From NCBI GenBank assembly GCA_963716475.1, contig OY970314.1, positions 564,790 to 628,789 of the forward strand: 64,000 nucleotides of DNA, in the 5' to 3' direction. Position 1 is the stretch's first letter. Each line of letters opens with the position of its first letter. The translations under genes were made by a program, and so were the position numbers. Under the pieces are notes generated by a model. It was not told the DNA's origin, searched no databases, and worked only from the letters and a program-made list of their open reading frames with translations. The stretch comes from Candidatus Woesebacteria bacterium. GTDB lineage: Bacteria; Patescibacteriota; Microgenomatia; UBA8517. Shown piece after piece: positions 18,798 through 38,628 of this stretch.

Positions 18798-20285
18798 TTA
18801 GGGAGTCCTATTTAGAAGTGTATTTAGGCTCCTTTTAATATCGGCCACCAGGGATAACCCCATCATGGACAGCATCGAAGCAGCATAAATAATTATTCCC
18901 GCGGCGGCAAGAATCATCATTGAGTTTAAACTAACGGGCAAGAACCTCTTCGCAATAATTAGAATTACACCCATAACAAGGGCCCCGATTGCCGGCTTTA
19001 CCATCGAGTCGGTAAGAGAAAAGTTAACATATTTTTTGGCAATAAATATTGCTACTACAGATGAAGCCCCGACTAATGAATAACCGATCGAGGCACCGAT
19101 TACACTAAACTTAAGTGCCAAAACCGGAATAAAAGCCCATGTCAGCACTGTCCACATAATCATCAGATAAAAAGTAATTCTAATTTTACCGATAGCATTC
19201 AACAAGTTTGTTAGTTGAGTAGTTGCAGCAGCAAAAGTAAAGTTTATCGAAACAAAAATAATTGGAATTAGAGCCGGGATCCATTGGTTGTATCTTGGTA
19301 TAATACGAACAAGGATGGGGGCCAAAACCGAAATACCAACCAAGCTTGGAAATACTAGAAGACAGATAAAAAATATTGATCTTGTCACGCTTCTTTCAAG
19401 ATGATCCGGGGCGTCCTGCATTCTGGAAAATGCCGGAAAAGTCACGCGTGTAACCGTATCCATGAAAAAGGTAAGCGGAAATCTGGCTATCTTTTGAGCA
19501 AAGGAAAGTACCCCTACCCCAATTGGCCCTAAAATACCTCCCAAGACGAGAGTCATCCCGTCATCCTTAAAAGTTGCCAGGAAAGTGTTTATTTGGTAGG
19601 GAATCCCGAATTTGAAAAGCCCTGACAGTGTTTTCCTGGAAAAAGCAAGGCCTGGCTTCCAGGGTTGAAGAATATAAATTGTGATAAGTCCTACTACTCC
19701 GCGGGTAAGTACCGCAAATGTAAAACTTTTTAGTCCGAATCCCTTCATAGCAAAAACAACCAGGACAACGTTATAAACCACCTGTTCCAGAATTTGAGGA
19801 AAAGCCAGCTTTACAAATTCGAGTTTCCGTTCCAAAAGCACCGAAGGTATACTTTTTAAAGAGGAGAAAAGCAGCGATGCCGCAAGAGCATACAAAAGTA
19901 TTTGACCATTATGATCAAGAGAATATTTTTGAGAAAAAAACGGAGTCAAGACAACAACAACGGCAATAATGGAAAGCACCAAGACCTGTTGAACGACAAA
20001 GGTTGTTTTTAAGTCCGTTTCTGTGGGTATTTCCTTCTTTTGAATCAGTGCTGCAGCCAAGCCAATATCCGAAAAATAAACAAGAAAATTTATAATTGCA
20101 CTGACAATTGCAAAAACCCCGAATTCATACTTACCCAAGTATGCAAATAAGAAAAGTTGGGCAACAAGTGCAATTACCTGCAGAAGAAAAGTGCGTCCGG
20201 TTAAAATGACAACCCCTCGTACCGAGCGTGCTTTTACGGTTTCCAAAGAAATTTCGCCGGTTGGGTCCATGTGTTCACCTTCCAT
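18798..20285 (-). CDS. Wzx-type oligosaccharide/polysaccharide flippase (MOP superfamily)
   Basis: 495 aa with about 12-14 TM helices. The N-terminal region has the pattern typical of Polysacc_synt proteins (GVVILTGRTFLLQVIALVAQLFLFAYLGKYEFGVFAIV). Confidence 0.75.
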   Translation of the reverse strand: MEGEHMDPTGEISLETVKARSVRGVVILTGRTFLLQVIALVAQLFLFAYLGKYEFGVFAIVSAIINFLVYFSDIGLAAALIQKKEIPTETDLKTTFVVQQVLVLSIIAVVVVLTPFFSQKYSLDHNGQILLYALAASLLFSSLKSIPSVLLERKLEFVKLAFPQILEQVVYNVVLVVFAMKGFGLKSFTFAVLTRGVVGLITIYILQPWKPGLAFSRKTLSGLFKFGIPYQINTFLATFKDDGMTLVLGGILGPIGVGVLSFAQKIARFPLTFFMDTVTRVTFPAFSRMQDAPDHLERSVTRSIFFICLLVFPSLVGISVLAPILVRIIPRYNQWIPALIPIIFVSINFTFAAATTQLTNLLNAIGKIRITFYLMIMWTVLTWAFIPVLALKFSVIGASIGYSLVGASSVVAIFIAKKYVNFSLTDSMVKPAIGALVMGVILIIAKRFLPVSLNSMMILAAAGIIIYAASMLSMMGLSLVADIKRSLNTLLNRTP

Positions 20286-21844
20286 TAGTTTACTTCAAAG
20301 AATAACAGTGCATCCTGCGGACCTTCCTGTTGATATTCTGTTGTTCCCGGAAGACGGGGTTCTTTGGGATATGACTCAATAAGTGTAAGGTTCAGTTTGG
20401 CCGGATCCGCTACTAAACGTGATTTATTGACAATAAAATAGGTCAAATTTCCGGAGAGTTTTGATTCAACCAATGGCTGTGGAACTTTGCTTATTGCCAG
20501 GCCTGTTCCGACTACTATGGTATTTGGCAAGTCCTGAACGTACATAGTAAAACCGTCAGGAAGAGTCCCAAAATATCCTTCGGTACCTACCACAATTTTC
20601 TTCCCGGGATTTTCAATGCGTACATTTCTAACATAATCAGCCGCTTCTTTTATCCCGATTCCCGATGTCCATTCCTGAAAATACCCCATTCGCTCGCGAC
20701 TGGGAAAATTAGCTTTCTCCGGATTTGTTACCAAAAACCAATCAAATATTCCGGCTTGGACTATAAATACTATAAAGGCCAAAACTGTTACATATTTCCA
20801 TTTTCCTGCCAAACCGGCAAAAGCTCCGGCAGCAAATACATAAAGAGGCGGAACCAAAAATAGAATATATCTTAATGTAAAACTTTTAGTATACTCGGCC
20901 TCGAACAGGAGTGGTGCCAAAAACCAAGCTCCGAGTATCAGAATGTATTTTCTATACTTTTTGAAATTTATTATTATTCCGATAGCTGCCAAAAGCATTA
21001 GACCAAAAGGCCCCATTGCCGTTAACCAACTGAGCGTGGTCGGAAGATTGTAACGGATGGGATCCGTCGGATTGGTCAAAATTCTTGAAAGCGGGAATAC
21101 ATAATCCCCGGTACGGGAAGAAAGAAGACTGAAATTCGGCCCCAGTCTCTGAATGTTATACATTCCAAATGCAATAAAATAAATTACCATTAAAAGCCCT
21201 GCGTATTTTAATATATTTTTCGGCTTTTTAAGTAGAATTACGGCCACGGGTATAAGAGCAGCGAAAAAAAGCGCCGGTGATTTGGTTAAAGACGCCAGGC
21301 CCAAGCTAAAACCCGTGATCATGGCCAGATCGAGACGTAAAGAATCGGCGGTAATGAGACTTAAGTAAAGTGTCCATATACCCAAGCAGGTCAGAAGTGA
21401 ATCGACAAGAGCCATCCTGTCAAAAAAGAGAGATAGAGGTGAGAGTGCCCAGAGGATTGAGGCGAAAAGCGCAGCCAATTTTGACTTAAAAATATAGTAA
21501 GTCAAAAGGAACAAGCCGATCATACTCCCAATTCCTGAGACGGCAGAAAGTAGTCTGCCTGCAAAAAGCGGGTCCGAAAGCCTTTTGACATAAAACATCA
21601 GGATCCACATAAAAAGAGGCTGTTTACCGTCAGATAGCGGCAAAAATCTTAACGTGGGTTCCGAAACCATAATTTGACTCCAACGTATGTATATGGCCTC
21701 ATCCGCAAACACCGGAATAATAGTCAGGTGAAAAAGCCTAAGTGCAAATCCGGCAAGAAGAATCCCCAATCCGGCCAGAACAACCCACCCCCACCCTTTC
21801 CAAAATTTCTGCATTCCTTCCGATATTATCTCACACCCTCCCAA
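20285..21844 (-). CDS. GT39/ArnT-like polytopic membrane glycosyltransferase
   Basis: First-loop motif IPVFADEAIYIRWSQ is the DE motif of ArnT/Pmt enzymes. 519 aa with a C-terminal soluble domain. An alternative start is MQKFWKG at about 21814. Confidence 0.75.
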   Translation of the reverse strand: MGGCEIISEGMQKFWKGWGWVVLAGLGILLAGFALRLFHLTIIPVFADEAIYIRWSQIMVSEPTLRFLPLSDGKQPLFMWILMFYVKRLSDPLFAGRLLSAVSGIGSMIGLFLLTYYIFKSKLAALFASILWALSPLSLFFDRMALVDSLLTCLGIWTLYLSLITADSLRLDLAMITGFSLGLASLTKSPALFFAALIPVAVILLKKPKNILKYAGLLMVIYFIAFGMYNIQRLGPNFSLLSSRTGDYVFPLSRILTNPTDPIRYNLPTTLSWLTAMGPFGLMLLAAIGIIINFKKYRKYILILGAWFLAPLLFEAEYTKSFTLRYILFLVPPLYVFAAGAFAGLAGKWKYVTVLAFIVFIVQAGIFDWFLVTNPEKANFPSRERMGYFQEWTSGIGIKEAADYVRNVRIENPGKKIVVGTEGYFGTLPDGFTMYVQDLPNTIVVGTGLAISKVPQPLVESKLSGNLTYFIVNKSRLVADPAKLNLTLIESYPKEPRLPGTTEYQQEGPQDALLFFEVN

Positions 21845-23229
21845 AGCAAGCCAACCCCATCAAAATCCCTTATAGCTTCAATTCCCTTGTATCCGGGAGG
21901 CACAACGATCGTAAAAATTTGCCTTTGATTTTTCAGAGGAGGCAAATCCGGCGTGGCACCGTAATAATTGAATAAAAACGGGTAACCAAATCCGTAACCA
22001 GGTTGAACACTCAGGGAGACTCCGTACCCCGATTTTCCGCCCATTTGAATAATCGTTTGAACGGCTTGCTCTTTTGCCCAAAGGTTCATCGGTTTTACGT
22101 GTATTTTCCAGGCTGCAATGTTAATAAATATCAGAAAAATAATAACTGCCAGAGTTACCACATCATATTTTTTGATTTTCTCAAAAACATAGCCGGATAA
22201 AATTATAAATGACGGAAGGGCTGACATTAAATAGTATTCCGAAAAATTAGATCTGTAAAAAAGGAAGAAAATGAAAGGGACAAAAAGAAAAAGCAGCGAG
22301 AGGGCCAACACCTTTCTATATTTAATTTCTTTCACTATTCCGACTACACAAGCTAAAATTGTTGCGACGAATATAACAATACGAAAAGCCACCGGGAAAA
22401 ACATGTAATAAAAACTGGCTGAGTTCGAGATTAAAGTCATAATAATCTTGCTTATGGGCGGGGCCAGCCCTGTTATAACAAGTCTAAATACTGAAAATAG
22501 TCTTCCAAAATTCACGAAACTGTGGGTCACATCAAAGACAATACTCGTTAGAAAACCTACAATCACTATCAATAGGGAGTAAAAAATCCATTTCCCGTCA
22601 AACTTAGGCTTAAACATTAACCAGTAGACAAGGGCTGCCGGAGGAAGAAGAAAAATCGCAAAATGTGCCTGAAATCCAATAACAAACCCCAAAAATGAAA
22701 CAAAAATCCCAAAAGGTTCTTTATCTGATATATAAACCCCATAAATAACCAAAAGTTCGGCAATATAAAAAAGCGATGGGGCCCAGGGACTTTGATCCCA
22801 AGTTATTAATGTTAAGGAAATGGTACTGAGGAGACTAAGTATCAGAGCGGTTTTTTCTGAATAGAACTTCCGGGTGAAGAAATATATCAAAAAAATAAAA
22901 CCTGCTCCCAAAAATACTGAGGTATAAGCACCGGCAATCGGATTACCGTTTGTGAAAATTGCGGATAGTCCCCAAAGATAGGTAAACCCCGGACCTATCG
23001 AATATCCTCCGAGACTTGTTTTTGGCCCTAAAAGTACCGGATGTCCTGATAAAAGATCTTTTGCCCTACCCGCAATTTCTTCCTGGTCCGCATCAAATGG
23101 AGTTCTTGTCTCTAATTTGTAAAGGCGCAAGAAAAGCGCAAGGAGGACTACCAAAATGATAGGTACAAATTTCACCAATTTATGAAGAAGTCGATTTAGA
23201 TTTGGGTTCCCCATGTCCGCCTCCGTCAA
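21826..23229 (-). CDS. ArnT-like GT-C polytopic membrane glycosyltransferase
   Basis: 467 aa. N-terminal pattern LRLYKLETRTPFDADQEEIAGRAKDLLSGHP. TM topology like the neighbouring GT39 paralogs. Confidence 0.65.
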   Translation of the reverse strand: MTEADMGNPNLNRLLHKLVKFVPIILVVLLALFLRLYKLETRTPFDADQEEIAGRAKDLLSGHPVLLGPKTSLGGYSIGPGFTYLWGLSAIFTNGNPIAGAYTSVFLGAGFIFLIYFFTRKFYSEKTALILSLLSTISLTLITWDQSPWAPSLFYIAELLVIYGVYISDKEPFGIFVSFLGFVIGFQAHFAIFLLPPAALVYWLMFKPKFDGKWIFYSLLIVIVGFLTSIVFDVTHSFVNFGRLFSVFRLVITGLAPPISKIIMTLISNSASFYYMFFPVAFRIVIFVATILACVVGIVKEIKYRKVLALSLLFLFVPFIFFLFYRSNFSEYYLMSALPSFIILSGYVFEKIKKYDVVTLAVIIFLIFINIAAWKIHVKPMNLWAKEQAVQTIIQMGGKSGYGVSLSVQPGYGFGYPFLFNYYGATPDLPPLKNQRQIFTIVVPPGYKGIEAIRDFDGVGLLWEGVR

Positions 23230-23242
23230 ATTCTAGCACATC

Positions 23243-24043
23243 TTAGACCCCGTATTTATTTTGAAGCGCATTCAGACGAACCATAATAAGACCACGAAAC
23301 CCTTCAATGGAATCCTTTATAGGATCTACTTTTGTCCCCTCTTTATGGTGCCAATCAACCGGAACTTCTGCAATTTTATATCCTAACTTTCGGGCAACAT
23401 AGAGAACTTCCAAATCAAATCCCGCTGTTACAGACGCACCTATATTTTTATTATTTGCGTCAAATATTTTAAGACGTTTGAATATTTCGTTTGCAGCCCC
23501 CCTCGTAAAAGCTTTGAAACCGCACTGTGTATCGTTAAAGGGAAGTCTGAGAATTAGAAGACGCAGGAAAGAAAACCCGGTAGCCATAATTTTTCGGATT
23601 ATCGGAGCCCCCTCCCTGCCATGACGTGAGCCGATTACGACGTCAAAGCCCTCTTTAAACTTGGGTAAAATCTTTGCCAGCTGGTCAATCGGTGTTGCCT
23701 GATCGGTATCTGTGAATAAAACTATTTCACCTTGGGCTTTCATAACCCCCGCGGTTACGGTTCCGCCTTTGCCACGGTGCGGCTCCCTTAAAATCTTAAA
23801 CTGTGGGTGTGTTTTAGCAAATTCTTCCGCAGTACTTGCAGTTTTGTCAGTTGAGCCATCATCAACAAACAAGATTTCCCAAGAATAATTCTGTTTCTCT
23901 AAATAATCGTAAACCGAGTCCAACACTCCTGTTCGGAGATTGTATTCTTCGTTAAATGCAGGTATAACAACGCTAAGAAATGTTTTCATTTTTTCTGCCA
24001 TACTTTCTGGCTGCAGTAAGAACTTTATCCACCGCCTGGTCAA
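23243..24043 (-). CDS. polyprenyl-phosphate hexosyltransferase, Dpm1/GtrB/ArnC-like GT2
   Basis: Motifs LSVVIPAFNEEYNL, ILFVDDGSTDKT, LFTDTDQATP and VIGSR. The true start is probably MAEKMK or MKTFLSVV, which reduces overlap with nrnA. Confidence 0.8.
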   Translation of the reverse strand: MTRRWIKFLLQPESMAEKMKTFLSVVIPAFNEEYNLRTGVLDSVYDYLEKQNYSWEILFVDDGSTDKTASTAEEFAKTHPQFKILREPHRGKGGTVTAGVMKAQGEIVLFTDTDQATPIDQLAKILPKFKEGFDVVIGSRHGREGAPIIRKIMATGFSFLRLLILRLPFNDTQCGFKAFTRGAANEIFKRLKIFDANNKNIGASVTAGFDLEVLYVARKLGYKIAEVPVDWHHKEGTKVDPIKDSIEGFRGLIMVRLNALQNKYGV

Positions 24044-24968
24044 ACGGCAAACCTTCTATTCTTGCGCCGGCGGCTGCTTTATGGCCGCCTCCGCCCACCT
24101 CCTGGGCTATCTGGGATACGTCAAAACCGGAACGGGATCTAAAACTCACGGAAAGAACTCCATTGTTTGTCTCCACCATAACTATTCCAAAATCGGTATC
24201 CTTAACAATCGGGAAAAACAGATTGGCGACATCCTCTTTAGCATATGGGTATTCTCCAAAATCTTTATAAGTAGCAAGCGAGATCGCAGACCAGACAAAG
24301 CCGTCCTCAATCTTCATACTTTCGATAAATTTGCCCCACATTTTTACTTCCTTATAATCGATATTTCTATAGATGTTAAAAATTATTTTATCTTTATCGG
24401 CTCCCGCATCCATAAGGGACGCTGCAATTCTAAGTGTTCCCTGGCCAACGTTCTGATATTGAAAAGATCCGGTGTCACCAATTATTCCGGTCAAAAGACA
24501 TTCTGCTGTCACCCGATCAATTTTTACATCCCAATCTTCAAAAATTTTGAATAAGAGCTCTCCCGTTGAGGTAGTTTTTGCGTCTATTAAATTAATTTTT
24601 CCAAACTTTTCACTTGAATAATGATGATCAATCATAATTGTATTAATGCTGGGTTTGTTATTATCCTTTAACCCCGTTACCATTGAATATGTTGAAGAGT
24701 CGATTGCGAGAAATAAGTCAAACTCCGAAAAATCGAAAGTTGAAAAATTAACCCTTTTAATTAAGTCCGCGCCGCTAAGAAATTTTAAATCCGCCGGAAC
24801 ATCACTTGGGCATACTATCTTAACTTCTTTACCCAAATTTCTAAGCACCCCGGAAAGTGCCAAGGCGCTTCCAACAGAATCCGAATCCGGACCCCGATGA
24901 CAATTAACCAGGATCTTATTGGCTTTCTTTATTTTCTCCAGTATTTTTGCAGATTCTTTGTAATTCAT
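23973..24968 (-). CDS. nrnA: DHH-DHHA1 phosphoesterase, NrnA-like bifunctional oligoribonuclease/pAp phosphatase
   Basis: DHH domain motifs NCHRGPDSDSVGSALAL and IMIDHH. The DHHA1 motif GGGGHKAAAGA is near the C-terminus. Confidence 0.8.
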   Translation of the reverse strand: MNYKESAKILEKIKKANKILVNCHRGPDSDSVGSALALSGVLRNLGKEVKIVCPSDVPADLKFLSGADLIKRVNFSTFDFSEFDLFLAIDSSTYSMVTGLKDNNKPSINTIMIDHHYSSEKFGKINLIDAKTTSTGELLFKIFEDWDVKIDRVTAECLLTGIIGDTGSFQYQNVGQGTLRIAASLMDAGADKDKIIFNIYRNIDYKEVKMWGKFIESMKIEDGFVWSAISLATYKDFGEYPYAKEDVANLFFPIVKDTDFGIVMVETNNGVLSVSFRSRSGFDVSQIAQEVGGGGHKAAAGARIEGLPFDQAVDKVLTAARKYGRKNENIS

Positions 24969-24974
24969 CGCAAC

Positions 24975-26489
24975 TTATTTTGTGTGTCCGAGCTTAAAAA
25001 GCGTACCGCCCCAAACCGGCCACTCGTCAACTATTTTAGTCCATCCGAAATTGGTAATCCAGGCAGAAGAGTTATGGGTTGGGTCACATTTTTCTATCGG
25101 CAATTCGCAGACAACAAAAAGCTGATCAGTTATTGTAAACGCAAGGGAGGAGGGATCAGTATCGACAACTTTGGCCCCCCAAAGAACAAGAAAATATTGA
25201 TAAACATCCCGATTATTAAGGTCTGAGATTGTAGCCAAATTAAATTTTTCTCCGTTCGCTTTTTCCTGTATTACCTTTGCTACCGAGATAGCCCTCTGCA
25301 TTTGATAAGTGGGGTCTGATAAAACCGGGGAGTTGATGATATTAACAACCACTAATAATAAAAGGTAGACTCCAAACATTAAAAATATGATCTTCGATTT
25401 TCTCAGGTTTTCTGCTACCGCGCCGATAAGCAAAAACGGAGCCGGGAAAAGAAAACCCAAGTAATGATCGAAGACCGGATTTTTATATACAGAAATTCCT
25501 GCCAGTCCAATAAGTAACCAGAGAACCACTAAACCTAATGGACTTTTAAACTTTTTGTTCATGATCACCCAAACCAAAACCGATAAAAATAACGCCAAAG
25601 TAACTACGCTTAGATATAAATTTTTAGCAGAAACTAAATTTGATGCAATCATAAATGCGGTTGAGCCGGATTTTGACAAAGAAGCACCTAGCGAAAACCC
25701 TATATCTTTTCTACTAGTCACAAGCGCTTCAATCGCGTGGACATTTGTCCCTCCGTGTCGGATATCGAAAATCAGTAGTGGTGACATTAAAATTAGGAAA
25801 AGCAAGATTCCAATCAAGGAATTTTTTATGAGGTTCTTCTTCATGTTGGTCTTCCTTATATTGATAAACGTCAAAAGCCAAAATACAAATAAAGTCGGCG
25901 CAAGCAATAAACCTAGGTAGTGGGATTGCAAAACAAACGCAAACGAAATCCCCAAAACGACTAGCCACTTAAATTTATTTTCCTTCCAAACTTTCCAGAT
26001 CGAATAAATTGAGAGAAGAGCAAAGAAAGGCATTATGTTCGGATTCCAAGAAGATTTGGAATAAACAATAATTATTGGAGAAATCGCATATAGTCCCGCA
26101 GCAACCAGACCTCCTAGCTTCCCAAACCACATCCTACCTGTCCACCAAACAAAGGCCACGGTGAGAATTCCCAAAACAGCTACCTGCACAGCCGGTCCTA
26201 CCGGAGAAAAGTTAGCAATAAGGAGTGCCGGAGCCATCATGTAGTAATAGAGGGGCCCCAAATACATATTACCGACAGATGTGCCGGGACCGATAAGCGG
26301 AGGGTGAAACTCGGTCAGAAACCTTCTGACAACAATAACGTCGCGGCCTTCATCTCCCAAAAATGTCATGTATTGATCGATCTTGTACAATCGGCAAAAG
26401 GCACCGATTACAATAATTGCCAACAATATCCAAAACTCCACAGGATTTTTCTTAATCCAATTTTTTAAATTTAGTGTAATTTTTTCCAC
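24975..26489 (-). CDS. GT39/ArnT-like polytopic membrane glycosyltransferase
   Basis: First-loop motif YMTFLGDEGRDVIVVRRF is the DE motif. 504 aa with ArnT-like topology. Confidence 0.75.
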   Translation of the reverse strand: MEKITLNLKNWIKKNPVEFWILLAIIVIGAFCRLYKIDQYMTFLGDEGRDVIVVRRFLTEFHPPLIGPGTSVGNMYLGPLYYYMMAPALLIANFSPVGPAVQVAVLGILTVAFVWWTGRMWFGKLGGLVAAGLYAISPIIIVYSKSSWNPNIMPFFALLSIYSIWKVWKENKFKWLVVLGISFAFVLQSHYLGLLLAPTLFVFWLLTFINIRKTNMKKNLIKNSLIGILLFLILMSPLLIFDIRHGGTNVHAIEALVTSRKDIGFSLGASLSKSGSTAFMIASNLVSAKNLYLSVVTLALFLSVLVWVIMNKKFKSPLGLVVLWLLIGLAGISVYKNPVFDHYLGFLFPAPFLLIGAVAENLRKSKIIFLMFGVYLLLLVVVNIINSPVLSDPTYQMQRAISVAKVIQEKANGEKFNLATISDLNNRDVYQYFLVLWGAKVVDTDPSSLAFTITDQLFVVCELPIEKCDPTHNSSAWITNFGWTKIVDEWPVWGGTLFKLGHTK

Positions 26490-27187
26490 AATCGTAAAAG
26501 ATCGACGAAGCTCTTAATTATGACATTCAGGTTTCTACCCGTTCCAGTACCTTTCAGCCTCGGATAATGTGTCACGGGTATTTCCACAATTTTAAAACCC
26601 GCCCGTTTTGCCTTTATAAGAAGTTCGCTGCTGACAAACGCTCCTCTTTGACTCTCCAGGTGCGGAATTGTGTCAACTACTTTTTTGGAAATTAGCTTAA
26701 ATCCACAATCAATATCACGTACTTTCAAGCCAAAAAGTGCAAAAACCGTCAGTTCCCAGAGCTTACTTGTCATCTTTTTAAAAACTGAAACTTGCCTTTT
26801 CTTGTAATACCCTATTACAAGGTCTGCGCCTGTTTCCTGACGCTTTGCAATAAAGTCCGTAATTTCGGCAAAATTGAACTGCCCATCCGAATCCATAAAG
26901 GCGATCCACGAATATTTACTTTCATATAAGCCGGAGGATATAGAAGCGCCGTACCCTTCATTTGCCCCGTGTGTTATAACGCGGATTCTTTTTTCCGACT
27001 CTGCCAGTTTATCAATCATTTCAGCTGATCCGTCGGTCGACCCGTCATTAACGATAATCAGCTCCCACTCAGCTGCCACATCCTGAAGCACTTTCTCTAT
27101 TGCCAAAACAACACTCTCAATATTTTCTTCTTCATTAAATATAGGTAGAAAAACCGAAAGTTCATCAATTATCTTAGCCACAAGCAC
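26471..27187 (-). CDS. polyprenyl-phosphate hexosyltransferase, Dpm1/GtrB/ArnC-like GT2
   Basis: Motifs LSVFLPIFNEEENI, IIVNDGSTDGS and FMDSDGQF. Confidence 0.8.
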   Translation of the reverse strand: MLVAKIIDELSVFLPIFNEEENIESVVLAIEKVLQDVAAEWELIIVNDGSTDGSAEMIDKLAESEKRIRVITHGANEGYGASISSGLYESKYSWIAFMDSDGQFNFAEITDFIAKRQETGADLVIGYYKKRQVSVFKKMTSKLWELTVFALFGLKVRDIDCGFKLISKKVVDTIPHLESQRGAFVSSELLIKAKRAGFKIVEIPVTHYPRLKGTGTGRNLNVIIKSFVDLLRLWKKLH

Positions 27188-27231
27188 AAGTCTAGCATAT
27201 TACGCCTACGTCGTGCTAATATCTAAGGTAC

Positions 27232-28392
27232 ATGAAAGGAGTGCTCAAAGGGTTTGCTGTTGCTGCCGTTTTATCGATTGTTCCGACACTTTTGATCTGG
27301 CTTCCTTTTTTCCTCCGAATAAGCAACTTTTGGAGTATTCCTCTTCCTCAAAACGGAATGGCTACGATAGTGGCTAATTATGACGGACCGCTTTATTTAG
27401 TTGCTGCAAAAACTCTTTACAGCAAAACGCAAATCGCTGCGAACTTTCAATTTCCCCTGCCTACTGAATATTACACAGCCCATTTCCCCCTATTCCCGCT
27501 TCTAATAAAATTTTTCGGTTTAGTAATTAATTACCCCTATGCAATGTTAATTGTAACGGCGCTATCTTCGATTTTGGCAATCTACTTCTTCATGAAATTA
27601 ATTTCACTTTACGTCGAAAGAAAGGATATTTTATTCCTAACCTTTCTTTTTTCAATTTTCCCGGCAAGGTGGCTTATCGTCAGGTCCGTCGGATCGGCCG
27701 ACCCGCTTTTTGTGGCTTCAATAATCGCTTCTCTCTACTATTTCAAAAATAAAAAATACTGGCTAGCCGGAATCTGGGGTGCCGTTGCCCAGATTACCAA
27801 GTCTCCGGGAATTCTGCTTTTTGTATCCTACCTAGTTTTTCTGTTAATTCCGATTATCAAAAATAAAGTATTTTTACCTGCCAGTAAATGGATCGAAAAT
27901 CTCAATCTTAGGAAGACCTTCCCGATCCTCCTAATTCCTCTTAGCCTTGTCGTTGTTTTCGGATTTTATAAAATCGTCCAGGGAGATTTTTGGGCATATT
28001 TCCATTCCGGTGATAATATCCATTTGGGCTTTCCACCGTTCCAAATATTTAATTTCTCAGCTCCCTGGGTGGGCACTTTCTGGTTGGAGGAAATAATTTT
28101 TGTTTATTTACTGGGGGCTATCGGAGTCTACAAGCTTTTTCAAAAGAAAGAGTTTGAGCTTGCTACGTTTGGTTCAATATTTTTTATACTTACGCTTTTT
28201 ATTGCACACCGTGATTTAATAAGATATTCACTTCCTTTGATTCCGTTTTTATTTGTGGCTTTTTCCGATACGTTGATAAAAAAGGAATTTAAAATCGGAC
28301 TTGCCGTAATTATTATTCCGATTTATTTATATTCTCTGGCATTCATTTCCCAGAATGTAATGCCCATATCCAATTGGGCACCCTTCCTGTAA
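27232..28392 (+). CDS. polytopic membrane protein, possible GT-C glycosyltransferase (unclassified)
   Basis: 386 aa with at least 10 hydrophobic helices. It is transcribed divergently from a Dpm1-like gene across a 44-nt gap. No diagnostic motif recognised. Confidence 0.45.
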   Translation: MKGVLKGFAVAAVLSIVPTLLIWLPFFLRISNFWSIPLPQNGMATIVANYDGPLYLVAAKTLYSKTQIAANFQFPLPTEYYTAHFPLFPLLIKFFGLVINYPYAMLIVTALSSILAIYFFMKLISLYVERKDILFLTFLFSIFPARWLIVRSVGSADPLFVASIIASLYYFKNKKYWLAGIWGAVAQITKSPGILLFVSYLVFLLIPIIKNKVFLPASKWIENLNLRKTFPILLIPLSLVVVFGFYKIVQGDFWAYFHSGDNIHLGFPPFQIFNFSAPWVGTFWLEEIIFVYLLGAIGVYKLFQKKEFELATFGSIFFILTLFIAHRDLIRYSLPLIPFLFVAFSDTLIKKEFKIGLAVIIIPIYLYSLAFISQNVMPISNWAPFL

Positions 28393-28432
28393 GCCAGCGT
28401 GGGTTTTTGTCATAACTTCAGACTAATCTATT

Positions 28433-28639
28433 ATGAGTACGGAAGCACCGCGTCACTGGAGGCTAAATCAACAAAGATATAATCTCGTCGGAGAAATGTG
28501 CCCGCACTGCGAAACTAAAATGTTCCCGCCGAGAGAAATTTGTAATAGTTGTGGAGAACCGATAAAAGGGGTTGGAGAAGAAGTGCAAACCGGTATCAGG
28601 ATTTCTTTGCCCACGGAAGTTTCCACGTCTTCCAAATAA
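28433..28639 (+). CDS. small zinc-ribbon protein (CPHC...CNSC), DUF35-like N-terminal ribbon without an OB domain
   Basis: 68 aa with motif CPHCETKMFPPREICNSCG. Its 3' end overlaps the convergent GT2-GtrA gene by about 44 nt. Confidence 0.4.
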   Translation: MSTEAPRHWRLNQQRYNLVGEMCPHCETKMFPPREICNSCGEPIKGVGEEVQTGIRISLPTEVSTSSK

Positions 28640-29738
28640 CCAGGTTGTACATCAGGTAGTTAAAGGGAAGCACCAAAACCACAATTATGAAAGGTAGTGT
28701 TATCTGTCTTGCCCCGACGCCTAACACTTTGTCACTTATTATTCCTGCAACAGTTTGAATAAGAAGGGCTCCCAAGGAGGTGCCATTGAAAGTTAGAAAC
28801 TTCTTGATGAGTGCGGCAAAGCCCGTAATTCTTTCACTCTTAAAAGTCCAGATGTTATTCAAGGTAAAGTTACTTATAATCGAAAGCTCGACAGGGACAG
28901 ACCAAGCAATTAAATTTGGAGAATTTAGCCCAGTCAGAATTTTTAGGGTAATTGCATTAATCAAATAGCCGACAAAACCCACCGTCCCGAATTTAATAAA
29001 CCTTTGTTTATCCAGAATTCCTAAAATAATTGCAAGTTTAAATGTCGAAACCATTTCCTTCCAGTTAAATTTGGATTTGTCTTTCGTACGGGCCTCAAAC
29101 TCAAGAGGAACTTCCACAGTCTTACCCGAGTTTTTAATTGATTGATAGAGAAGATCAACCTTATACGCAAACCTGTCAAGGTCTCTTAACTTCGTAAGTT
29201 CAATCTTATTTAACACTCCGTCAACTTTTGTTAATCTGAAACCTGTCGTTAAATCGTGAATTCTGAAATTAAGAAGAACGGTTCGGATAAACAAATTTCC
29301 AAAGAAACTTACCGCCTTCCGGCTCGCCGCCCACTCCTTAGGAACCGACCCTCCCTTAATATACCTGCTACCAATCACGTACTCAGCGCCATTCAGGTAT
29401 GCATCAACCATTGGTTTAACAAAGCGCGGCGGGTGTTGAAAATCGGCATCCATTTCCATAACTGCATCCGCGTGAAGTTCGTTAACGGCAAATTGCATCC
29501 CCCTTACATAAGCCCAACCCAACCCCGGTTTATCCTGCTCCAGAATATGAACATGCTTGTAAGCATTTGAGGCATCTTCTACGATTTCTGTTGTTCCGTC
29601 AGTTGAATGATTATCAACAATTAGAAGCTGCATATCGGCGTTGATTGTGGGGAATTCCCTTTTTACGAGCTCCTCAATCATCCTTTTAATATTCTCGACC
29701 TCGTTCCAAGCCGGCATCACTATCACAACTTTGTTCAT
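28596..29738 (-). CDS. fusion protein: Dpm1/GtrB-like polyprenyl-phosphate glycosyltransferase (GT2) plus C-terminal GtrA-like flippase domain
   Basis: N-terminal motifs VVIVMPAWNEVENI, LLIVDNHSTDGT and MEMDADFQHPP. The C-terminal 4-TM segment FIKFGTVGFVGYLINAITLKIL...NIWTF is GtrA-like. The start is re-called to ATG MNKVVIV at about 29738. The tracked ORF extends to 29903 and would overlap trmD. Confidence 0.75.
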   Translation of the reverse strand: MNKVVIVMPAWNEVENIKRMIEELVKREFPTINADMQLLIVDNHSTDGTTEIVEDASNAYKHVHILEQDKPGLGWAYVRGMQFAVNELHADAVMEMDADFQHPPRFVKPMVDAYLNGAEYVIGSRYIKGGSVPKEWAASRKAVSFFGNLFIRTVLLNFRIHDLTTGFRLTKVDGVLNKIELTKLRDLDRFAYKVDLLYQSIKNSGKTVEVPLEFEARTKDKSKFNWKEMVSTFKLAIILGILDKQRFIKFGTVGFVGYLINAITLKILTGLNSPNLIAWSVPVELSIISNFTLNNIWTFKSERITGFAALIKKFLTFNGTSLGALLIQTVAGIISDKVLGVGARQITLPFIIVVLVLPFNYLMYNLVIWKTWKLPWAKKS

Positions 29739-29760
29739 AGACAAATGATACAATATCATT

Positions 29761-30387
29761 GTGAAAATCGATATACTCACTCTTTTCCCCGACATGTTTG
29801 CCGGGCCTTTTGACGCCTCGATTGTTAAACGTGCCGAAAGCCAGGATTTAATTAAAATTGAAGTCCATGATTTGAGAAACTGGGGCGAAACCCATAGACG
29901 CAATGTTGATGATAGACCCTATGGGGGCGGGGTAGGAATGATACTCCGAGTCGATATTATCGATAACGCTTTGAAAGCATTAAGAACTGAAAAATCTCAC
30001 GTAGTTTTACTTGACGCCACAGGTGAAAAATTTGTTCAGAAAAAAGCTGTAAAACTTTCCAAACTCAATCATATCATTCTCATTGCAGGCCACTATGAAG
30101 GGGTTGACCATCGGGTTCACGAACATCTGGTTAATGAAGTAATTTCAATCGGAGATTATGTTTTGACAGGAGGAGAAATCCCGGCGATGGTTCTGGTTGA
30201 CAGTATTATCAGATTAATTCCCGGAGTTTTGGGAAAAGACGAGTCTTCCATCGATGAATCACACAAAGAACCGGGATATTTGGAATACCCCCAATACACA
30301 AGACCTGAAAATTACAAAGGCTGGAATGTTCCAAAAATTCTTCTTTCGGGAAACCACAAGGAGATTGAAAGGTGGAGAAAGTCTTAA
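29761..30387 (+). CDS. trmD: tRNA (guanine37-N1)-methyltransferase
   Basis: MKIDILTLFPDMF... and LIAGHYEGVDHRV...VLTGGEIPAMVLVDSIIRLIPGVLG match the SPOUT/TrmD family. It apparently starts at GTG. Confidence 0.9.
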   Translation: MKIDILTLFPDMFAGPFDASIVKRAESQDLIKIEVHDLRNWGETHRRNVDDRPYGGGVGMILRVDIIDNALKALRTEKSHVVLLDATGEKFVQKKAVKLSKLNHIILIAGHYEGVDHRVHEHLVNEVISIGDYVLTGGEIPAMVLVDSIIRLIPGVLGKDESSIDESHKEPGYLEYPQYTRPENYKGWNVPKILLSGNHKEIERWRKS

Positions 30388-32156
30388 ATTTCCTTCTTCC
30401 ATCCCGAAGACGGGGCAGTTACCCTACCAAATTTTTGACCGGCCCAGAGGACGGCGGTTACCAAAAAGTATTGAAAAACACCGTGATACCATTTCGCTGC
30501 TTTTACCAATCTTTCATTGGATACGGAAAGACCCGCCTTTTTAGATGCCTGGCCATGAAAGTGAATAAATTCTGCAGTAGGAACATAGTACACCGGAATA
30601 TTATTCGCTTTTGCCCTTCGGCAATAATCAATATCTTCAAAATACATAATGGTTGCTTCCTCAACAATTCCAATTTCGTTTATCACCCGATTCGGAATTA
30701 GAAAACAGGCCATTACTGCAACTTCTACCTTGGTAATACTCGTTGCCGATGGAGTAAACATAAAGTACCGGCCACGGCGCCCCAAAAAATACTCTTCAAA
30801 GGCATGCCAGGGTGTTGGAAGCATGAAACAGGAGTCTTGTGGTTTTCCGTTGCCGAAAAGCAGTTTTCCACAATAAATAGCCATATCACCAAGGCCTTCA
30901 ACCGCCTTGATAAGGTTCGATATGCTGTTCGGCTTTACCTTGATATCCGAATTAAGCATTAAGATATACCTCCCCAAGGAAAAATTAATCATTTGATTAT
31001 TTCCCCGTGCAAACCCGTTATTTGCTTTATTGGAAATAAATTTGATATTTGGGTAGGCGTTTAAAACTTCCGTTTTGCAGGATTCATCCGGAGAATTATC
31101 CAAAACTATTACTTCCGTCCCTCCCCTAACCTTATCAAAACCGGATCTTCCTTCAAAAACACTTTTTAAAAGCTGAAGAATCAGACCGGTTGTTTTGTAA
31201 TTAATAACAATAATAGAAAGTCCGAGAGGATATTCTATATTTTCCGGCTCCCTAGCCCCTTTCCAACCCCAAACTCCCCGATAATAGTCGATGATTCCTT
31301 CCTTTTGGGCTGGCCTTCCTTTTACTAGGAGCTTAAGAGCTTCCCTAAATAAGGCAAATCTTGTCCTAAAACCGGCATATTTATTGCCAATCCATAATCT
31401 ATTCCTTGTAATAAGATAGTCGCTCCAGGAAGAACCGATCCCGGTAGTCCGTGATACCTTGTGATAAATATATGCGCTCCCTGTATACCATTGTTCGTAC
31501 CCTGCGCGTTTTACCCGCTCAATCCAATCCGCATCTTCATAATAGGCAAATAATTTTTCCTCGAAGTAACCCACATTCTCGACCACTTCGCGCTTAACGA
31601 GAACGCAGCACCCGGTTATATAATTTGTTCTTTCGGTATTACCAAATTGTCCTTTATCAACTTTATCTATACCTCGATGAACGGATTTAACATTATTCCA
31701 ATCGAAACTGCCACCTGCGTACCAGACAACATTTCCCCGGTCATTTTTTGTATATTTATCTTTATAAAATTCATATCCGGGAGCGAAATATATTTTGGGG
31801 GAAACAAGTCCCGCCTTAGGATTAGTTTCAAAAACCCCAATCAACTTCTTTAATAAATTCCTATCCGGGAAAAGTGTATCGTTATTTATAATTAATATAA
31901 AATCTGCACCCCACTCCTTGGCGTATTTCATCCCGATATTAAATCCGCCGGCAAATCCCAAATTCTTACCGGTCTGCTTCCAAATTACATGAGGAAATTT
32001 TTCTATGACATCACGTACGGAAACATCAGAACCGTTATCAACTACGAGCCACAACATATTTAAACCTTCTGTATCCAGATTTTTTGCCGACTCGAGATAC
32101 TCCTTGGTATCCCGATGATTATTAAAGTCAACTGTGACAACCGCTACTTTAGTCAT
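30384..32156 (-). CDS. two-domain family 2 glycosyltransferase (tandem GT-A modules)
   Basis: Module 1 has VAVVTVDFNNHRDT, LVVDNGSDVS and IINNDTLF. Module 2 has LSIIVINYKTTGLI, IVLDNSPDES and MLNSDIKV. Confidence 0.8.
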   Translation of the reverse strand: MTKVAVVTVDFNNHRDTKEYLESAKNLDTEGLNMLWLVVDNGSDVSVRDVIEKFPHVIWKQTGKNLGFAGGFNIGMKYAKEWGADFILIINNDTLFPDRNLLKKLIGVFETNPKAGLVSPKIYFAPGYEFYKDKYTKNDRGNVVWYAGGSFDWNNVKSVHRGIDKVDKGQFGNTERTNYITGCCVLVKREVVENVGYFEEKLFAYYEDADWIERVKRAGYEQWYTGSAYIYHKVSRTTGIGSSWSDYLITRNRLWIGNKYAGFRTRFALFREALKLLVKGRPAQKEGIIDYYRGVWGWKGAREPENIEYPLGLSIIVINYKTTGLILQLLKSVFEGRSGFDKVRGGTEVIVLDNSPDESCKTEVLNAYPNIKFISNKANNGFARGNNQMINFSLGRYILMLNSDIKVKPNSISNLIKAVEGLGDMAIYCGKLLFGNGKPQDSCFMLPTPWHAFEEYFLGRRGRYFMFTPSATSITKVEVAVMACFLIPNRVINEIGIVEEATIMYFEDIDYCRRAKANNIPVYYVPTAEFIHFHGQASKKAGLSVSNERLVKAAKWYHGVFQYFLVTAVLWAGQKFGRVTAPSSGWKKEI

Positions 32157-33055
32157 AAAACTTTTAAAATATCATGGTAAATTCCGGCCCGGAGTTTATC
32201 CCCCGTCAGACCAAAAACTAACCACCTTTCTACTACACCAAACCAAATAACAACTTTCATCATAAAATCGTAATCCGGATAGTATTTCTTAAGGTAATAT
32301 CTTAGCCCCTGGATTTCACGGTTTAAAGGCTTCCCGATGTCATGGCCTGAGCTGGCCTTATCCAAATGGGTTATCTCAAATGAGGGCGTGTACCAAATTG
32401 CAAACCCCTGATCATTTATCCTACGGCTCCATTCAACCTCCTCCATGTACATAAAAAATTTTTCATCGAAGCCTTTGGTTTTTTCTACAACCTCACGCTT
32501 CATAAATAAAAACGCCCCCATAACCCAGCCCAGCTTACGATCCTTATCAAAAAATTGCTTTTGCTTAGGATGAACAGGCTTTAGTGAAAATTTATCCAAT
32601 CCAAACATCCATAGCATCGTATTAAAGGGGTCAGGCAAGTAACCTGCTGAGGGCTGCATTTTACCGTCTACAAATTTTAGCTTGCACCCTAAGACATCGC
32701 AGTTTTCGTTATAATTCATAAACCGGACAGCCTTCGATAAGGTTTCAGGAGCTACTAATGAATCCGTGTTAAGGAACAAATAATATTTTGTTTTTTTATT
32801 TGAAATTTTAATACCTAAATTATTTCCTTTGGCAAATCCTGTATTTTCTCCAGGATCCAAAAGTTTTACCCATGAATATTTGTTTTTAACAATCTCCCCT
32901 GTCCCATCCGTCCCGTTTTCGATAAGAATCGTCTCAACAGGTTTCTCTAAATAGTCAATACTTTTTTTCAATTTATCCAAACACTGAGAAGTCAGATCTT
33001 TGGTGTTATAAGAACAAATAATTACCGATATTTCAGGAGCAACACTGTTATGCAT
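32153..33055 (-). CDS. family 2 glycosyltransferase
   Basis: Motifs ISVIICSYNTKDL, LIENGTDGTG and FLNTDSLV. Confidence 0.8.
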   Translation of the reverse strand: MHNSVAPEISVIICSYNTKDLTSQCLDKLKKSIDYLEKPVETILIENGTDGTGEIVKNKYSWVKLLDPGENTGFAKGNNLGIKISNKKTKYYLFLNTDSLVAPETLSKAVRFMNYNENCDVLGCKLKFVDGKMQPSAGYLPDPFNTMLWMFGLDKFSLKPVHPKQKQFFDKDRKLGWVMGAFLFMKREVVEKTKGFDEKFFMYMEEVEWSRRINDQGFAIWYTPSFEITHLDKASSGHDIGKPLNREIQGLRYYLKKYYPDYDFMMKVVIWFGVVERWLVFGLTGDKLRAGIYHDILKVL

Positions 33056-33950
33056 AATTTATCCCTTTTTCGATTTTCCACAAACGGTATTTTTCTAACA
33101 TTGAGATTCCCAGTTTTACAATAATCATAACCGGCCATGGCCCAAGCTCTTTCCAATGCTTATTGATAAATATTCTCATTGCACTTGCGGCTGACTTTGC
33201 AGATTTTATTTTTGTTTCTTTGGTTACATCTTCTTTGGAAGTAGACCATAAACCGGATGATGATCCTTTGTAGTGCATTATTGTCTCCGACGGTTCATAC
33301 CAAATCTTATATCCAGCCTTTTTTATACGGTAGCAAAATTCAATGTCTTCACCATTCCACCAATAGTCAGTATCCCACCAATTAATTTTATCCAGAACTT
33401 TCCGCTTAACCATCAAAAATGTTCCGGAGATGCAGTCAATATAATGGCTTTTGTTTACATCCAAATAAGTAGCTTCATAACCTGCAAAAATTTGAGATTT
33501 GGGAAAAGACTTAGAAAGTTTGGTCCAAAAACAAAAGGTATTCCAAACCGTGGGAAGCCCACGATGGCAGGAATAATCTATTTTGCCGTTCGGTAACATC
33601 ACTTTGCAGGTTATAGCTCCCAGCTCGCTCCTTCCCGTCAGAATTTTCAGACATTTTTCTATCGCCCTACCTTTTACTTCCGTATCAGGGTTTAAAAACA
33701 AAACCGAGTCTCCCTTGGTAGCTTTCCGGGCTAAATTATTACCCGCAGCAAACCCCGAATTGGTAACATTTATAACCAGGTCAACTTCGGGGAAATTTTT
33801 CCTGATCATGTCAACGCTGCCATCAGACGAAGAATTATCGACTACTATAATTTGGAGGCTTTTGTCATTATATGTATCGTAAATTGCCTGAATAGCTTTC
33901 TTAAGCAATTTTTCTACATTATAAGATAGAATTATTACGGACAAGGCCAT
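33048..33950 (-). CDS. family 2 glycosyltransferase
   Basis: Motifs LSVIILSYNVEKLL, IVVDNSSSDGS and FLNPDTEV. Confidence 0.8.
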   Translation of the reverse strand: MALSVIILSYNVEKLLKKAIQAIYDTYNDKSLQIIVVDNSSSDGSVDMIRKNFPEVDLVINVTNSGFAAGNNLARKATKGDSVLFLNPDTEVKGRAIEKCLKILTGRSELGAITCKVMLPNGKIDYSCHRGLPTVWNTFCFWTKLSKSFPKSQIFAGYEATYLDVNKSHYIDCISGTFLMVKRKVLDKINWWDTDYWWNGEDIEFCYRIKKAGYKIWYEPSETIMHYKGSSSGLWSTSKEDVTKETKIKSAKSAASAMRIFINKHWKELGPWPVMIIVKLGISMLEKYRLWKIEKGINYA

Positions 33951-33959
33951 ACGAGGCTA

Positions 33960-34856
33960 TTATACAGCTCTCTTAACAAGCATATCTACTATCTGCCTCC
34001 AGGAGCTAAATTTAATTCCCAATTCTTTCTCGCTTGTTTCAACCTTTAACCCGCCAAATTTTGGGTATCTGACAGGGTTATCTGTGGTTTTTAGAAAATC
34101 ACCCAAGCTGATTCCTTCTACCGCATCTTTCTCCCCTCTGGCTTTCTCAATCAAATAAGACACCAATTTAAACGGAGTTGTTATATCACGGGAGCCGGCG
34201 TGGAATATCCCATGAAGATTATTGTCAATTATTTTCTCTAAAGCCATTGCAACCTCGTCTACAAATGCAATTGAAACTTGCTGATCCGTAAACATCGGGT
34301 AAAGTTCCCCGGCGTCAAACAGTGAAAGCGGTTTTCTTAAATAGTCGGGCTTTAAATCATATTTGGCACTCACCGGATAAATCAATCTTAAAATCGTCGC
34401 ATCCTTCCCAAACTTGCTAATCACTTCCTCTTCCCCAAGATTTTTTGTATAGCCATACCAAGTCAGTTCATCCTCTTTAAAAGTAGTCGGGTGATTTTCC
34501 TCATATGGTCCCGGGTCTTTTTCGGATCCCGGAAAAACCATATCCGTAGATATTTGAATAAAACGGCATTTTGGAGGCAACGCCTCAATCAGATTTTTAA
34601 CTCCGATAACATTTACCTTGTAGCAGTCCGCATTTTCGTCGCCTCTTTGTTTTTCGGCTTCTCCAACATTTGTGTAGGCTGCAAAGTTGACTATAACGTC
34701 GGGGTTTGTTTCTCTTACTGTATTAAATACGTTTTTTTTATCCGTCAGATCAAAATGAGGGTACCCCGGAGTTATAAAATCATACTTGGTTCTATATAGC
34801 CCAACAAATTTAGACCCGACTAAACCTGAAGCCCCCGTAACCAGTATCTTCTTCAT
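33960..34856 (-). CDS. rmlD: dTDP-4-dehydrorhamnose reductase
   Basis: SDR-type sequence ILVTGASGLVGS and FAAYTNVGEAE. A YGYTK catalytic YxxxK is present. It sits next to rmlC and rmlB. Confidence 0.8.
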   Translation of the reverse strand: MKKILVTGASGLVGSKFVGLYRTKYDFITPGYPHFDLTDKKNVFNTVRETNPDVIVNFAAYTNVGEAEKQRGDENADCYKVNVIGVKNLIEALPPKCRFIQISTDMVFPGSEKDPGPYEENHPTTFKEDELTWYGYTKNLGEEEVISKFGKDATILRLIYPVSAKYDLKPDYLRKPLSLFDAGELYPMFTDQQVSIAFVDEVAMALEKIIDNNLHGIFHAGSRDITTPFKLVSYLIEKARGEKDAVEGISLGDFLKTTDNPVRYPKFGGLKVETSEKELGIKFSSWRQIVDMLVKRAV

Positions 34857-36417: not shown

Positions 36418-36425
36418 TATTTATA

Positions 36426-37160: not shown

Positions 37161-37179
37161 AGATAATGTATATTATATC

Positions 37180-37680: not shown

Positions 37681-37716
37681 AGTAGGCTCAAATTATACGC
37701 TTTTTGTACCTTGAAG

Positions 37717-38616: not shown

Positions 38617-38628
38617 GATTGAAGTATA

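Follow-up and report, generated by a model that had tools for sequence, protein, structure and literature searches.

A probable cell-envelope glycosylation cluster with a DPMS-like, GtrA-domain-containing synthase in Candidatus Woesebacteria

We analyzed a 64-kb stretch of DNA from a Candidatus Woesebacteria bacterium (contig OY970314.1; the whole stretch is called the window below), and found that its region from 20285 to 29903 contains three genes for GT2 proteins resembling Dpm1, GtrB and ArnC and four genes for GT-C membrane transferases, as judged by Pfam and fold comparison (Table 1). This region is probably the conserved core of a supercluster for glycosylation of the cell envelope, in which sugars would be linked to a lipid and then transferred by the GT-C proteins. 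One of the three GT2 proteins is fused to a GtrA-like membrane domain. This synthase-flippase fusion can be recognized as a known and common architecture, namely that of the archaeal dolichol-phosphate-mannose synthase (DPMS), and the family in the window is best described as a close variation, in bacteria, on the theme of type III DPMS and not as a new kind of enzyme.

The DPMS-like protein and its GtrA-like domain

The open reading frame (ORF) from 28596 to 29903 matched the Pfam families Glycos_transf_2 (91 bits) and GtrA_DPMS_TM (50.7 bits, cutoff 26.1; ORF residues 304-424), and the match to the GtrA profile PF04138 (E = 2.5e-13) covered profile positions 1-117 of 117. Because a database protein with 100% identity (P0001, on a contig of 982,852 bp) has 380 amino acids, and because the longer ORF, which starts with TTG, runs into trmD, the true gene is taken to be 28596-29738. 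In the 380-residue protein, the GT2 catalytic domain with its interface helices corresponds to approximately residues 1-245, and the GtrA-like domain with four transmembrane (TM) segments to approximately residues 249-369 (nucleotides 28632-28994). Four hydrophobic peaks were found by hydropathy analysis in the C-terminal 130 residues (252-268, 276-292, 325-341 and 346-362). A phmmer comparison with the DPMS of Pyrococcus furiosus (PfDPMS, structure 5MLZ) aligned residues 3-370 of the fusion protein with residues 24-373 of 374 (E = 5e-36), with 32% identity overall.

PfDPMS, which was crystallized in 2017, has the same architecture of a GT2 domain followed by a TM part (PMC5526996), and Pfam now names PF04138 "GtrA/DPMS, transmembrane domain". 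With the fusion protein as the query, at least 4325 proteins reached E<=1e-10. Both domains were present in all of the 120 best homologues, each of about 380 amino acids. In a library of representatives at 50% identity, 286 clusters were found at E<=1e-30, and the 150 best representatives included 90 full-length ones. A sequence-only reading of the window had placed this gene at 28596..29738, assigned a GtrA-like domain with four TM segments to its C-terminus, suggested a test of whether relatives share the fusion, and called the fusion unusual. The coordinates agree with the identical database protein; the domain is borne out by the GtrA profile match above the cutoff and by the four hydrophobic peaks, and the fusion is shared by the 120 homologues. 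That the fusion is unusual can no longer be said in view of the solved P. furiosus structure, the Pfam name and the number of clusters. In five of the related loci described below (L019, L046, L054, L069 and L077), a second DPMS-like gene, whose product is 31-33% identical to the fusion protein of the window, lies directly before the orthologue.

A 2026 paper from the laboratory that determined the 2017 structure calls the TM part of PfDPMS GtrA-like and defines type III DPMS by sequence motifs; by that definition, the type is restricted to hyperthermophilic archaea (PMC12992685). We reconstructed PfDPMS from the published alignment (numbering offset 22) and aligned it with the window protein and the 120 homologues. 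The type III motif 89-DADxQHPP-96, where x is Leu, Phe or Tyr, is DADFQHPP in the fusion protein, and x is Phe in 113 of the homologues. The phosphate-coordinating residues R117 (within S116-R117-Y118), R131 and S135 are kept, and they and the rest of S116-R117-Y118 are invariant or nearly so in the homologues. The polar-pocket residues N248, N277 and N341 are kept and are each present in all 120; at position 341, where the definition allows Arg or Asn, the window protein has Asn, as do archaeal type III members outside Thermococcales. A Lys is invariant at or near position 178 (178 or 180, depending on the alignment), in the context K-V-D instead of K-I-L. The residues E12, G68, L69, R202 and K208 of PfDPMS are also conserved, and F177 is replaced with Tyr. 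Among the 90 full-length representatives of the 50%-identity library, all three Asn residues were kept in 45, an aromatic residue was found at position 338 in 14, and the strict motif DAD[LFY]QHPP in 4; a single representative carried every motif. This type-III-like family is abundant in bacteria from groundwater, peat and lakes, which contradicts the distribution given for type III (PMC12992685); that distribution should be qualified.

Soluble GT2 proteins, GT-C proteins and gene order

The other two GT2 proteins, GT2a (23243-24043) and GT2b (26471-27187), matched Glycos_transf_2 with 100 and 102 bits, respectively. The best match of GT2b in the PDB was ArnC (E = 2e-20, residues 5-214), and its best NCBIfam match was also ArnC, with 80 bits, far below the cutoff of 529 bits. 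For GT2a, the best PDB matches were GtrB (E = 5.5e-16) and DPMS (E = 1.1e-15), and the best NCBIfam match was PgfS (83 bits). The top NCBIfam matches of all three GT2 proteins were PgfS, ArnC, dolichyl-phosphate hexose transferase, AglJ and PpgS, and polymer synthases and other GT2 proteins ranked far lower in the PDB comparison. In a blastp matrix, in which aligned fragments from the PDB output served as the reference enzymes, the three proteins scored 44-99 bits with PfDPMS, ArnC and GtrB, versus 16-47 bits with the remaining seven GT2 domains encoded in the window. Pairwise identity among the three is 22-27%, and their best references differ. On these two grounds, the idea that the three genes arose by a recent tandem duplication was rejected; the proteins appear to be old paralogues from three subfamilies, and different donors, or at least different subfamilies, would fit the same results. 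Prediction of the sugars by phylogeny was rejected as unreliable, because no NCBIfam score comes near its equivalog cutoff and the references are aligned fragments. Because the TTG start of GT2a at 24043 overlaps the neighbouring DHH gene by 71 nucleotides, the start is probably ATG at 23998 or 23989.

Two of the four GT-C proteins were recognized by Pfam. The protein encoded at 20285-21844 (about nine TM segments, likely start ATG at 21814) matched PMT_2 (40.6 bits, cutoff 26.1) and PMT (27.5 bits) and is paralogous to that at 1539-3176 (phmmer E = 6e-9), and the 24975-26489 protein (about ten TM segments) matched PMT_2 with 52.4 bits. The 21826-23229 and 27232-28392 proteins had no direct Pfam family match, and AlphaFold models were made for these two. 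The former has 107 homologues, most of which match PMT_2 (PF13231) and some of which are named ArnT-like by JGI; its database copy begins at M6 (23214), and it is paralogous to the 24975-26489 protein (phmmer E = 1e-23 to 4e-25). Its model (pLDDT 94, pTM 0.92) gave ArnT (5F15; E = 3e-6, TM-score 0.62) as the top fold match, followed by STT3/AglB, AftB, ALG9 and Pmt, all of which are GT-C enzymes. The 27232-28392 protein has 3076 homologues, many with the JGI name "Gpi18-like mannosyltransferase", and 11 of 40 sampled homologues showed a weak PMT_2 match. The fold matches of its model (pLDDT 77, pTM 0.83) were exclusively GT-C enzymes: AglB, ALG9, ArnT, PglB, ALG12 and PimE. An acidic motif follows TM segment 1 directly in each of the four proteins, namely FADEA (20285), FDADQEE (21826), GDEGRD (24975) and NYDGPLY (27232), and NYDGPLY is invariant in the Gpi18-like protein. 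On the basis of the predicted folds, both multi-pass proteins without a Pfam match are classified as GT-C enzymes.

When species-representative genomes were scanned, 80 loci with 42-85% identity were obtained. They belong to Woesebacteria, Amesbacteria, Shapirobacteria, Microgenomates and unclassified Patescibacteria; the samples came from groundwater, peat and lakes. Neighbouring genes were scored by tblastn with the window proteins. The order trmD, DPMS-like gene, Gpi18-like GT-C gene, GT2b, PMT_2 gene, DHH gene and GT2a was found, in the same orientation, in most of the 80 loci: trmD in 71, the Gpi18-like gene in 64, GT2b in 62, the PMT_2 gene at 24975 in 57, the DHH gene in 42, GT2a in 68 and, beyond trmD, rmlBCD in 34-40. 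Many loci that lack a neighbour are cut by contig ends. As the gene order recurs in most of these loci, the arrangement is not due to chance, and the span of identities makes it unlikely that the neighbourhood is confined to a few near-identical genomes. The most conserved neighbour of the DPMS-like gene is the Gpi18-like gene (median identity 62%, versus 60% for TrmD); that its product is as conserved as TrmD suggests a strong constraint on this pair. The reading frames overlap or nearly abut at 26471-26489 (19 nucleotides), 21826-21844 and 20285, which suggests that the genes form one operon; the sole intergenic gap, of 203 nucleotides (28393-28595), lies between the convergent stop codons of the Gpi18-like and DPMS-like genes. 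Literature searches for this cluster in bacteria of the candidate phyla radiation found nothing relevant in the library covered. Many of the related contigs (L002, L005, L009, L012, L013 and others) are labelled "uncultured Gammaproteobacteria bacterium" (binchicken metagenome-assembled genomes) and carry the Patescibacteria-type order at 60-77% identity; thus, these labels look wrong.

The sequence-only reading had described three GT2 genes adjacent to GT39/ArnT-like or divergent multi-pass proteins, had regarded them as the component set of extracytoplasmic glycosylation dependent on polyprenyl phosphate, in three or more copies, and had considered this multiplicity unusual. All seven genes were found, with small corrections of coordinates; for the GT2 gene given as 23243..24043, the gene itself stands and the start moves as described above. 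The component set agrees with the Pfam, PDB and NCBIfam matches and the GT-C folds, and the proposed grouping of the GT2 proteins with polyprenyl-phosphate synthases, and not with cytoplasmic polymer synthases, agrees with the PDB, NCBIfam and blastp comparisons. The number of candidate synthases, three, is correct, but the membrane proteins had been undercounted: from 1539 to 28392 the window encodes about 12 that are multi-pass, and for ten of these Pfam or the fold gives GT-C evidence. The multiplicity proved to be conserved across Woesebacteria and relatives as a trait of the lineage and so is not unusual among them.

Possible mechanism and relation to known systems

The probable scheme, based on homology, is that on the cytoplasmic face the three GT2 proteins each load polyprenyl phosphate with a single sugar taken from a sugar nucleotide. 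The 28596-29738 protein would be a monomeric, membrane-embedded relative of archaeal type III DPMS, and GT2a and GT2b would presumably act at the membrane surface via amphipathic C-terminal helices. The product of the DPMS-like enzyme may be moved to the outer face by the enzyme's own GtrA-like four-helix domain, and those of GT2a and GT2b may be flipped by the Wzx-type protein or by another protein. The four GT-C proteins, and about six more encoded upstream, are expected from their folds and motifs to use the lipid-linked sugars on extracytoplasmic acceptors. The likeliest acceptors would be surface proteins, a wall polysaccharide that contains rhamnose and is built by the products of the adjacent rml, GT2, GT4 and Wzx genes, or both; by analogy with actinobacterial Ppm1/Pmt, the PMT_2 proteins might just as well carry out protein O-glycosylation.

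A number of observations weigh against this scheme or parts of it, and are given here with the alternatives on which they bear. The self-flipping step finds support in the four-helix domain, which keeps the three Asn residues that bind the flipped headgroup of dolichyl-phosphate mannose (Dol-P-Man) in the P. furiosus crystal. However, flipping by PfDPMS is itself a hypothesis, proposed from one crystal state with upside-down Dol-P-Man (PMC12992685), and in the structures of 2017 TMH4 does no more than support the isoprenoid chain (PMC5526996). Furthermore, Leu replaces the gating Phe338 in the window protein and in 107 of the 120 homologues, in departure from the type III definition, which allows Tyr at this position, and a Wzx-type flippase is encoded in the same operon. 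This protein (Polysacc_synt_3, 178 bits; NCBIfam MOP flippase, 123 bits; 12 TM segments) could be the flippase for the products of the soluble GT2 proteins or for a lipid-linked oligosaccharide. The four-helix domain may thus do no more than anchor the protein in the membrane and bind the polyprenyl chain, with flipping by Wzx, by a GtrA protein encoded elsewhere or by a scramblase; we regard this as a serious possibility that falls somewhat short of an even chance. The invariance of N248, N277 and N341 despite their location in the membrane domain argues against a mere anchor, as does a conserved aromatic residue (Phe or Tyr) at position 340, two positions after 338. Moreover, no stand-alone GtrA-like ORF was found in the 64-kb window among ORFs of 80-220 amino acids with at least three TM segments; the small multi-TM ORFs there are VanZ, VTT/DedA, PAP2-like and DgkA-like, and none resembles GtrA. 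The strongest form of the self-flipping idea is that the fusion protein is a bifunctional polyprenyl-phosphate hexose synthase and translocator, which together with the Gpi18-like GT-C protein would constitute a minimal, flippase-free glycosylation system of two proteins; we consider this unlikely.

The position of GT2a and GT2b in the scheme is open to another objection: they might be ordinary cytoplasmic GT2 proteins that act on a lipid-pyrophosphate oligosaccharide or a soluble metabolite, adjacent to GT-C genes through operon membership. By hydropathy, neither protein has a TM segment, and among the small ORFs between 5000 and 30400 no small membrane activator like GacJ or WpsB was found. 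None of the three GT2 proteins reached an NCBIfam equivalog cutoff, all family scores being far below the curated values, and the N-terminal half of GT2a also matches glucosyl-3-phosphoglycerate synthase and PgaC; the operon has many further GT2 and GT4 genes. Nevertheless, the best matches of these proteins span 160-210 residues, including the region after DxD with which ArnC, GtrB and DPMS bind the lipid phosphate, and their scores with PfDPMS, ArnC and GtrB are two- to four-fold above those with the other GT2 proteins of the window. The GT2b-PMT_2 pair, with its overlapping frames, is kept in 57-62 of the 80 loci. Soluble synthases of polyprenyl-phosphate sugars do exist, as in human DPM1 and the catalytic domains of mycobacterial Ppm. 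GacI and WpsA are likewise soluble synthases of this kind, which need a small partner (PMC10821137). We therefore consider a purely cytoplasmic role of GT2a and GT2b improbable. A scan for promoters and terminators from 26900 to 30100 gave results no better than those for shuffled sequence, which does not favour the scheme either.

The sugar is also in question. In PfDPMS, guanine is read by Asp39, the backbone of Gly68 and Leu69 (PMC5526996). Asn takes the place of Asp39 in the window protein and in 98 of the homologues (20 have Asp), the equivalent of Arg63 is Glu or Gln (Glu in the window protein), and no gene for GDP-mannose synthesis was found in the window, where the sugar-nucleotide genes are rmlABCD, a galU-like gene and galE. 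For these reasons the product may not be a mannolipid, and "mannose" should be read, for the fusion protein, as an annotation by homology only. The Asn/Asp split at position 39 hints at a divided nucleotide-sugar preference within the family. The same findings count against protein O-mannosylation of the actinobacterial Ppm1/Pmt kind, in which the DPMS-like enzyme would make polyprenyl-phosphate mannose and the PMT_2 proteins would mannosylate secreted or surface proteins, with no polysaccharide involved. Such a system would agree with the Pfam PMT and PMT_2 matches, the intact DPMS catalytic motifs, the homologue names given by JGI ("dolichol-phosphate mannosyltransferase" and "Gpi18-like mannosyltransferase"), and the nearby genes for secreted proteins with a CAP domain (38886-39824) and a lamin-tail domain (41241-42353). 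However, PMT_2 is a broad profile common to ArnT-like enzymes, ArnT is the best structural match of the 21826-23229 protein, and the operon lies amid rmlABCD, Wzx and many cytoplasmic glycosyltransferase genes, as in rhamnose wall-polysaccharide loci; O-mannosylation alone is thus rather doubtful.

The preferred reading, an envelope-glycosylation system with lipid-linked sugars and GT-C transfer, can be compared with several known systems. PfDPMS (5MLZ, 5MM0, 5MM1 and 9EP0; PMC5526996, PMC12992685) is, like the window fusion, a single polypeptide with a GT2 domain, interface helices and a GtrA-like four-helix domain, of about 352 amino acids versus 380. The window enzyme differs in being from a bacterium (Patescibacteria), whereas type III has been described as confined to hyperthermophilic archaea (PMC12992685), and in the replacements at F338 (to Leu, with the aromatic residue at 340), KIL (to KVD), D39 (to Asn) and R63 (to Glu); its acceptor would be a bacterial polyprenyl phosphate instead of dolichyl phosphate. 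With the three-component systems GtrA/GtrB/GtrC, CsbB/GtcA/YfhO and ArnC/ArnEF/ArnT, the region shares a GT2 synthase (by homology) side by side with a GT-C transferase; GT2b is nearest to ArnC and GT2a to GtrB, and PMT_2/ArnT-like and YfhO/PTPS-related GT-C proteins are encoded here. Unlike the GtrABC type, the window has no separate flippase gene of the GtrA or SMR type, and several systems are concatenated in one operon; unlike GtrB and ArnC, GT2a and GT2b lack two C-terminal TM helices.

The closest analogue at the operon level is found in GacI/GacJ/GacK/GacL of streptococci and WpsA/WpsB/WpsG/WpsJ of lactococci, in which a DPMS-like GT2 protein, Wzx and GT-C proteins decorate or attach rhamnose polysaccharide (PMC10821137). 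A DPMS-like GT2 protein without TM segments, a Wzx flippase, GT-C proteins, dTDP-rhamnose genes and many cytoplasmic glycosyltransferases are common to both, whereas in the window no activator like GacJ or WpsB was found, and there are many more GT-C paralogues and the additional, self-contained DPMS-type enzyme. The actinobacterial Ppm1/Pmt system (for Streptomyces Pmt, see PMC8698208) is similar in that a Dpm1-family polyprenyl-phosphate mannose synthase feeds a PMT-like GT-C protein of family GT39. It too operates in a bacterium without an outer membrane. To our knowledge, Ppm1 has no GtrA-like domain, and the actinobacterial Ppm1 and Pmt genes are not clustered as here.

Surrounding genes and implications

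Genes for glycan biosynthesis on the minus strand fill nearly all of the window from 1539 to approximately 40800, and its G+C content is about 40%. Among the sugar-nucleotide genes, rmlA (250 bits) and the galU-like gene (270 bits) scored below their NCBIfam cutoffs, and galE (381 bits) scored above its cutoff of 262 bits. The DHH gene in the conserved core scored 106 bits with NCBIfam NrnA, below the 350-bit cutoff. Its product probably takes no part in the glycosylation chemistry, to which no link is evident; some loci (L053 and L057) carry two or three copies of the gene in tandem.

Table 1. Features of the window discussed in the text
Feature	Position	Strand	Basis
Further GT-C-like proteins	1539, 5625, 8437, 9678, 11222, 12855	-	Pfam, TM counts, paralogy
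Paralogous pair without family match	3197-5059; 6791-8440	+; -	Pfam, paralogy
GT2 genes	14577, 17159, 17886	-	Pfam
Methyltransferase	15470	-	Pfam
GT4	16120	-	Pfam
Wzx-type MOP flippase	18798..20285	-	Pfam Polysacc_synt_3, NCBIfam, 12 TM segments
PMT_2 GT-C transferase, FADEA motif	20285..21844	-	Pfam PMT_2 and PMT
Divergent PMT_2/ArnT-like GT-C transferase, FDADQEE motif	21826..23229	-	Homologues, AlphaFold fold match
GT2a, soluble DPMS/GtrB-like synthase candidate, about 251 amino acids	23243..23998	-	Pfam, PDB, NCBIfam
DHH/DHHA1 phosphoesterase (NrnA-like)	23973..24968	-	Pfam DHH and DHHA1
PMT_2 (GT39/GT83-like) GT-C transferase, 504 amino acids, GDEGRD motif	24975..26489	-	Pfam
GT2b, soluble ArnC/GtrB-like synthase candidate, 238 amino acids	26471..27187	-	Pfam, PDB, NCBIfam
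Gpi18-like GT-C membrane glycosyltransferase	27232..28392	+	Homologue names, AlphaFold fold match
Putative DPMS-like polyprenyl-phosphate hexose synthase, 380 amino acids	28596..29738	-	Pfam, PDB phmmer, motifs, hydropathy
TrmD	29761..30387	+	Pfam
Double GT2 (30384), then two GT2 genes	within 30384..40816	-	Pfam
rmlD, rmlC, rmlB, rmlA (rmlA at 36426)	33960-37160	-	Pfam, NCBIfam
RNaseH-like gene, no evident link to glycan synthesis	37180-37680	-	Pfam
galU-like	37717	-	Pfam, NCBIfam
CAP-domain secreted protein gene, no evident link to glycan synthesis	38886-39824	-	Pfam
galE	39824, within 30384..40816	-	Pfam, NCBIfam
Lamin-tail-domain protein gene	41241-42353	-	Pfam

Several further membrane proteins lie upstream of the core. 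Three tandem paralogues at 9678-14573 on the minus strand (522-572 amino acids; phmmer E = 1e-60 to 1e-104 among the members) have PTPS_related matches and weak YfhO, PMT_2 or STT3 matches; another GT-C-like family of the same operon seems to have expanded recently here. The pair at 3197-5059 and 6791-8440 (9-10 TM segments, E of about 1e-72 to each other, no Pfam or NCBIfam match) has a DG(A/V)WH motif after the first helices and lies among GT87/PIG-M-like genes (5625-6791 and 8437-9681). The CAP-domain and lamin-tail proteins, encoded beyond sugar-nucleotide genes, are possible secreted or surface substrates of glycosylation. Also in the window is a Pfam-identified VTT/DedA-family protein (49152-49697, minus strand), a family linked to recycling of the polyprenyl phosphate carrier. 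Small PAP2-like (62366-62866, minus strand) and DgkA-like (63172-63537, plus strand) membrane proteins, identified by eye from motifs only, belong to families that are tied to the same recycling; all three are encoded in the same window as the glycosylation cluster.

Apart from the type-III-like DPMS, the cluster is of a well-understood kind already named by automatic annotation. Genomes of Patescibacteria are approximately 1 Mb in size, yet about 40 kb is given here to glycosylation of the envelope. Because so large a part of a tiny genome is involved and the core is conserved across groups, surface glycans are probably important for a lifestyle that is thought to rely on attachment to a host. 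The bacterial family described here has nearly all hallmarks of type III DPMS, including the residues proposed to bind the flipped headgroup, and thus offers alternative proteins for tests of self-flipping. If the fusion protein were indeed a bifunctional synthase and translocator, the class of type III DPMS would extend from hyperthermophilic archaea to mesophilic bacteria, and the family would provide a tractable system, with ordinary bacterial lipids and at moderate temperature, for studying how monosaccharides linked to lipid phosphate cross membranes.

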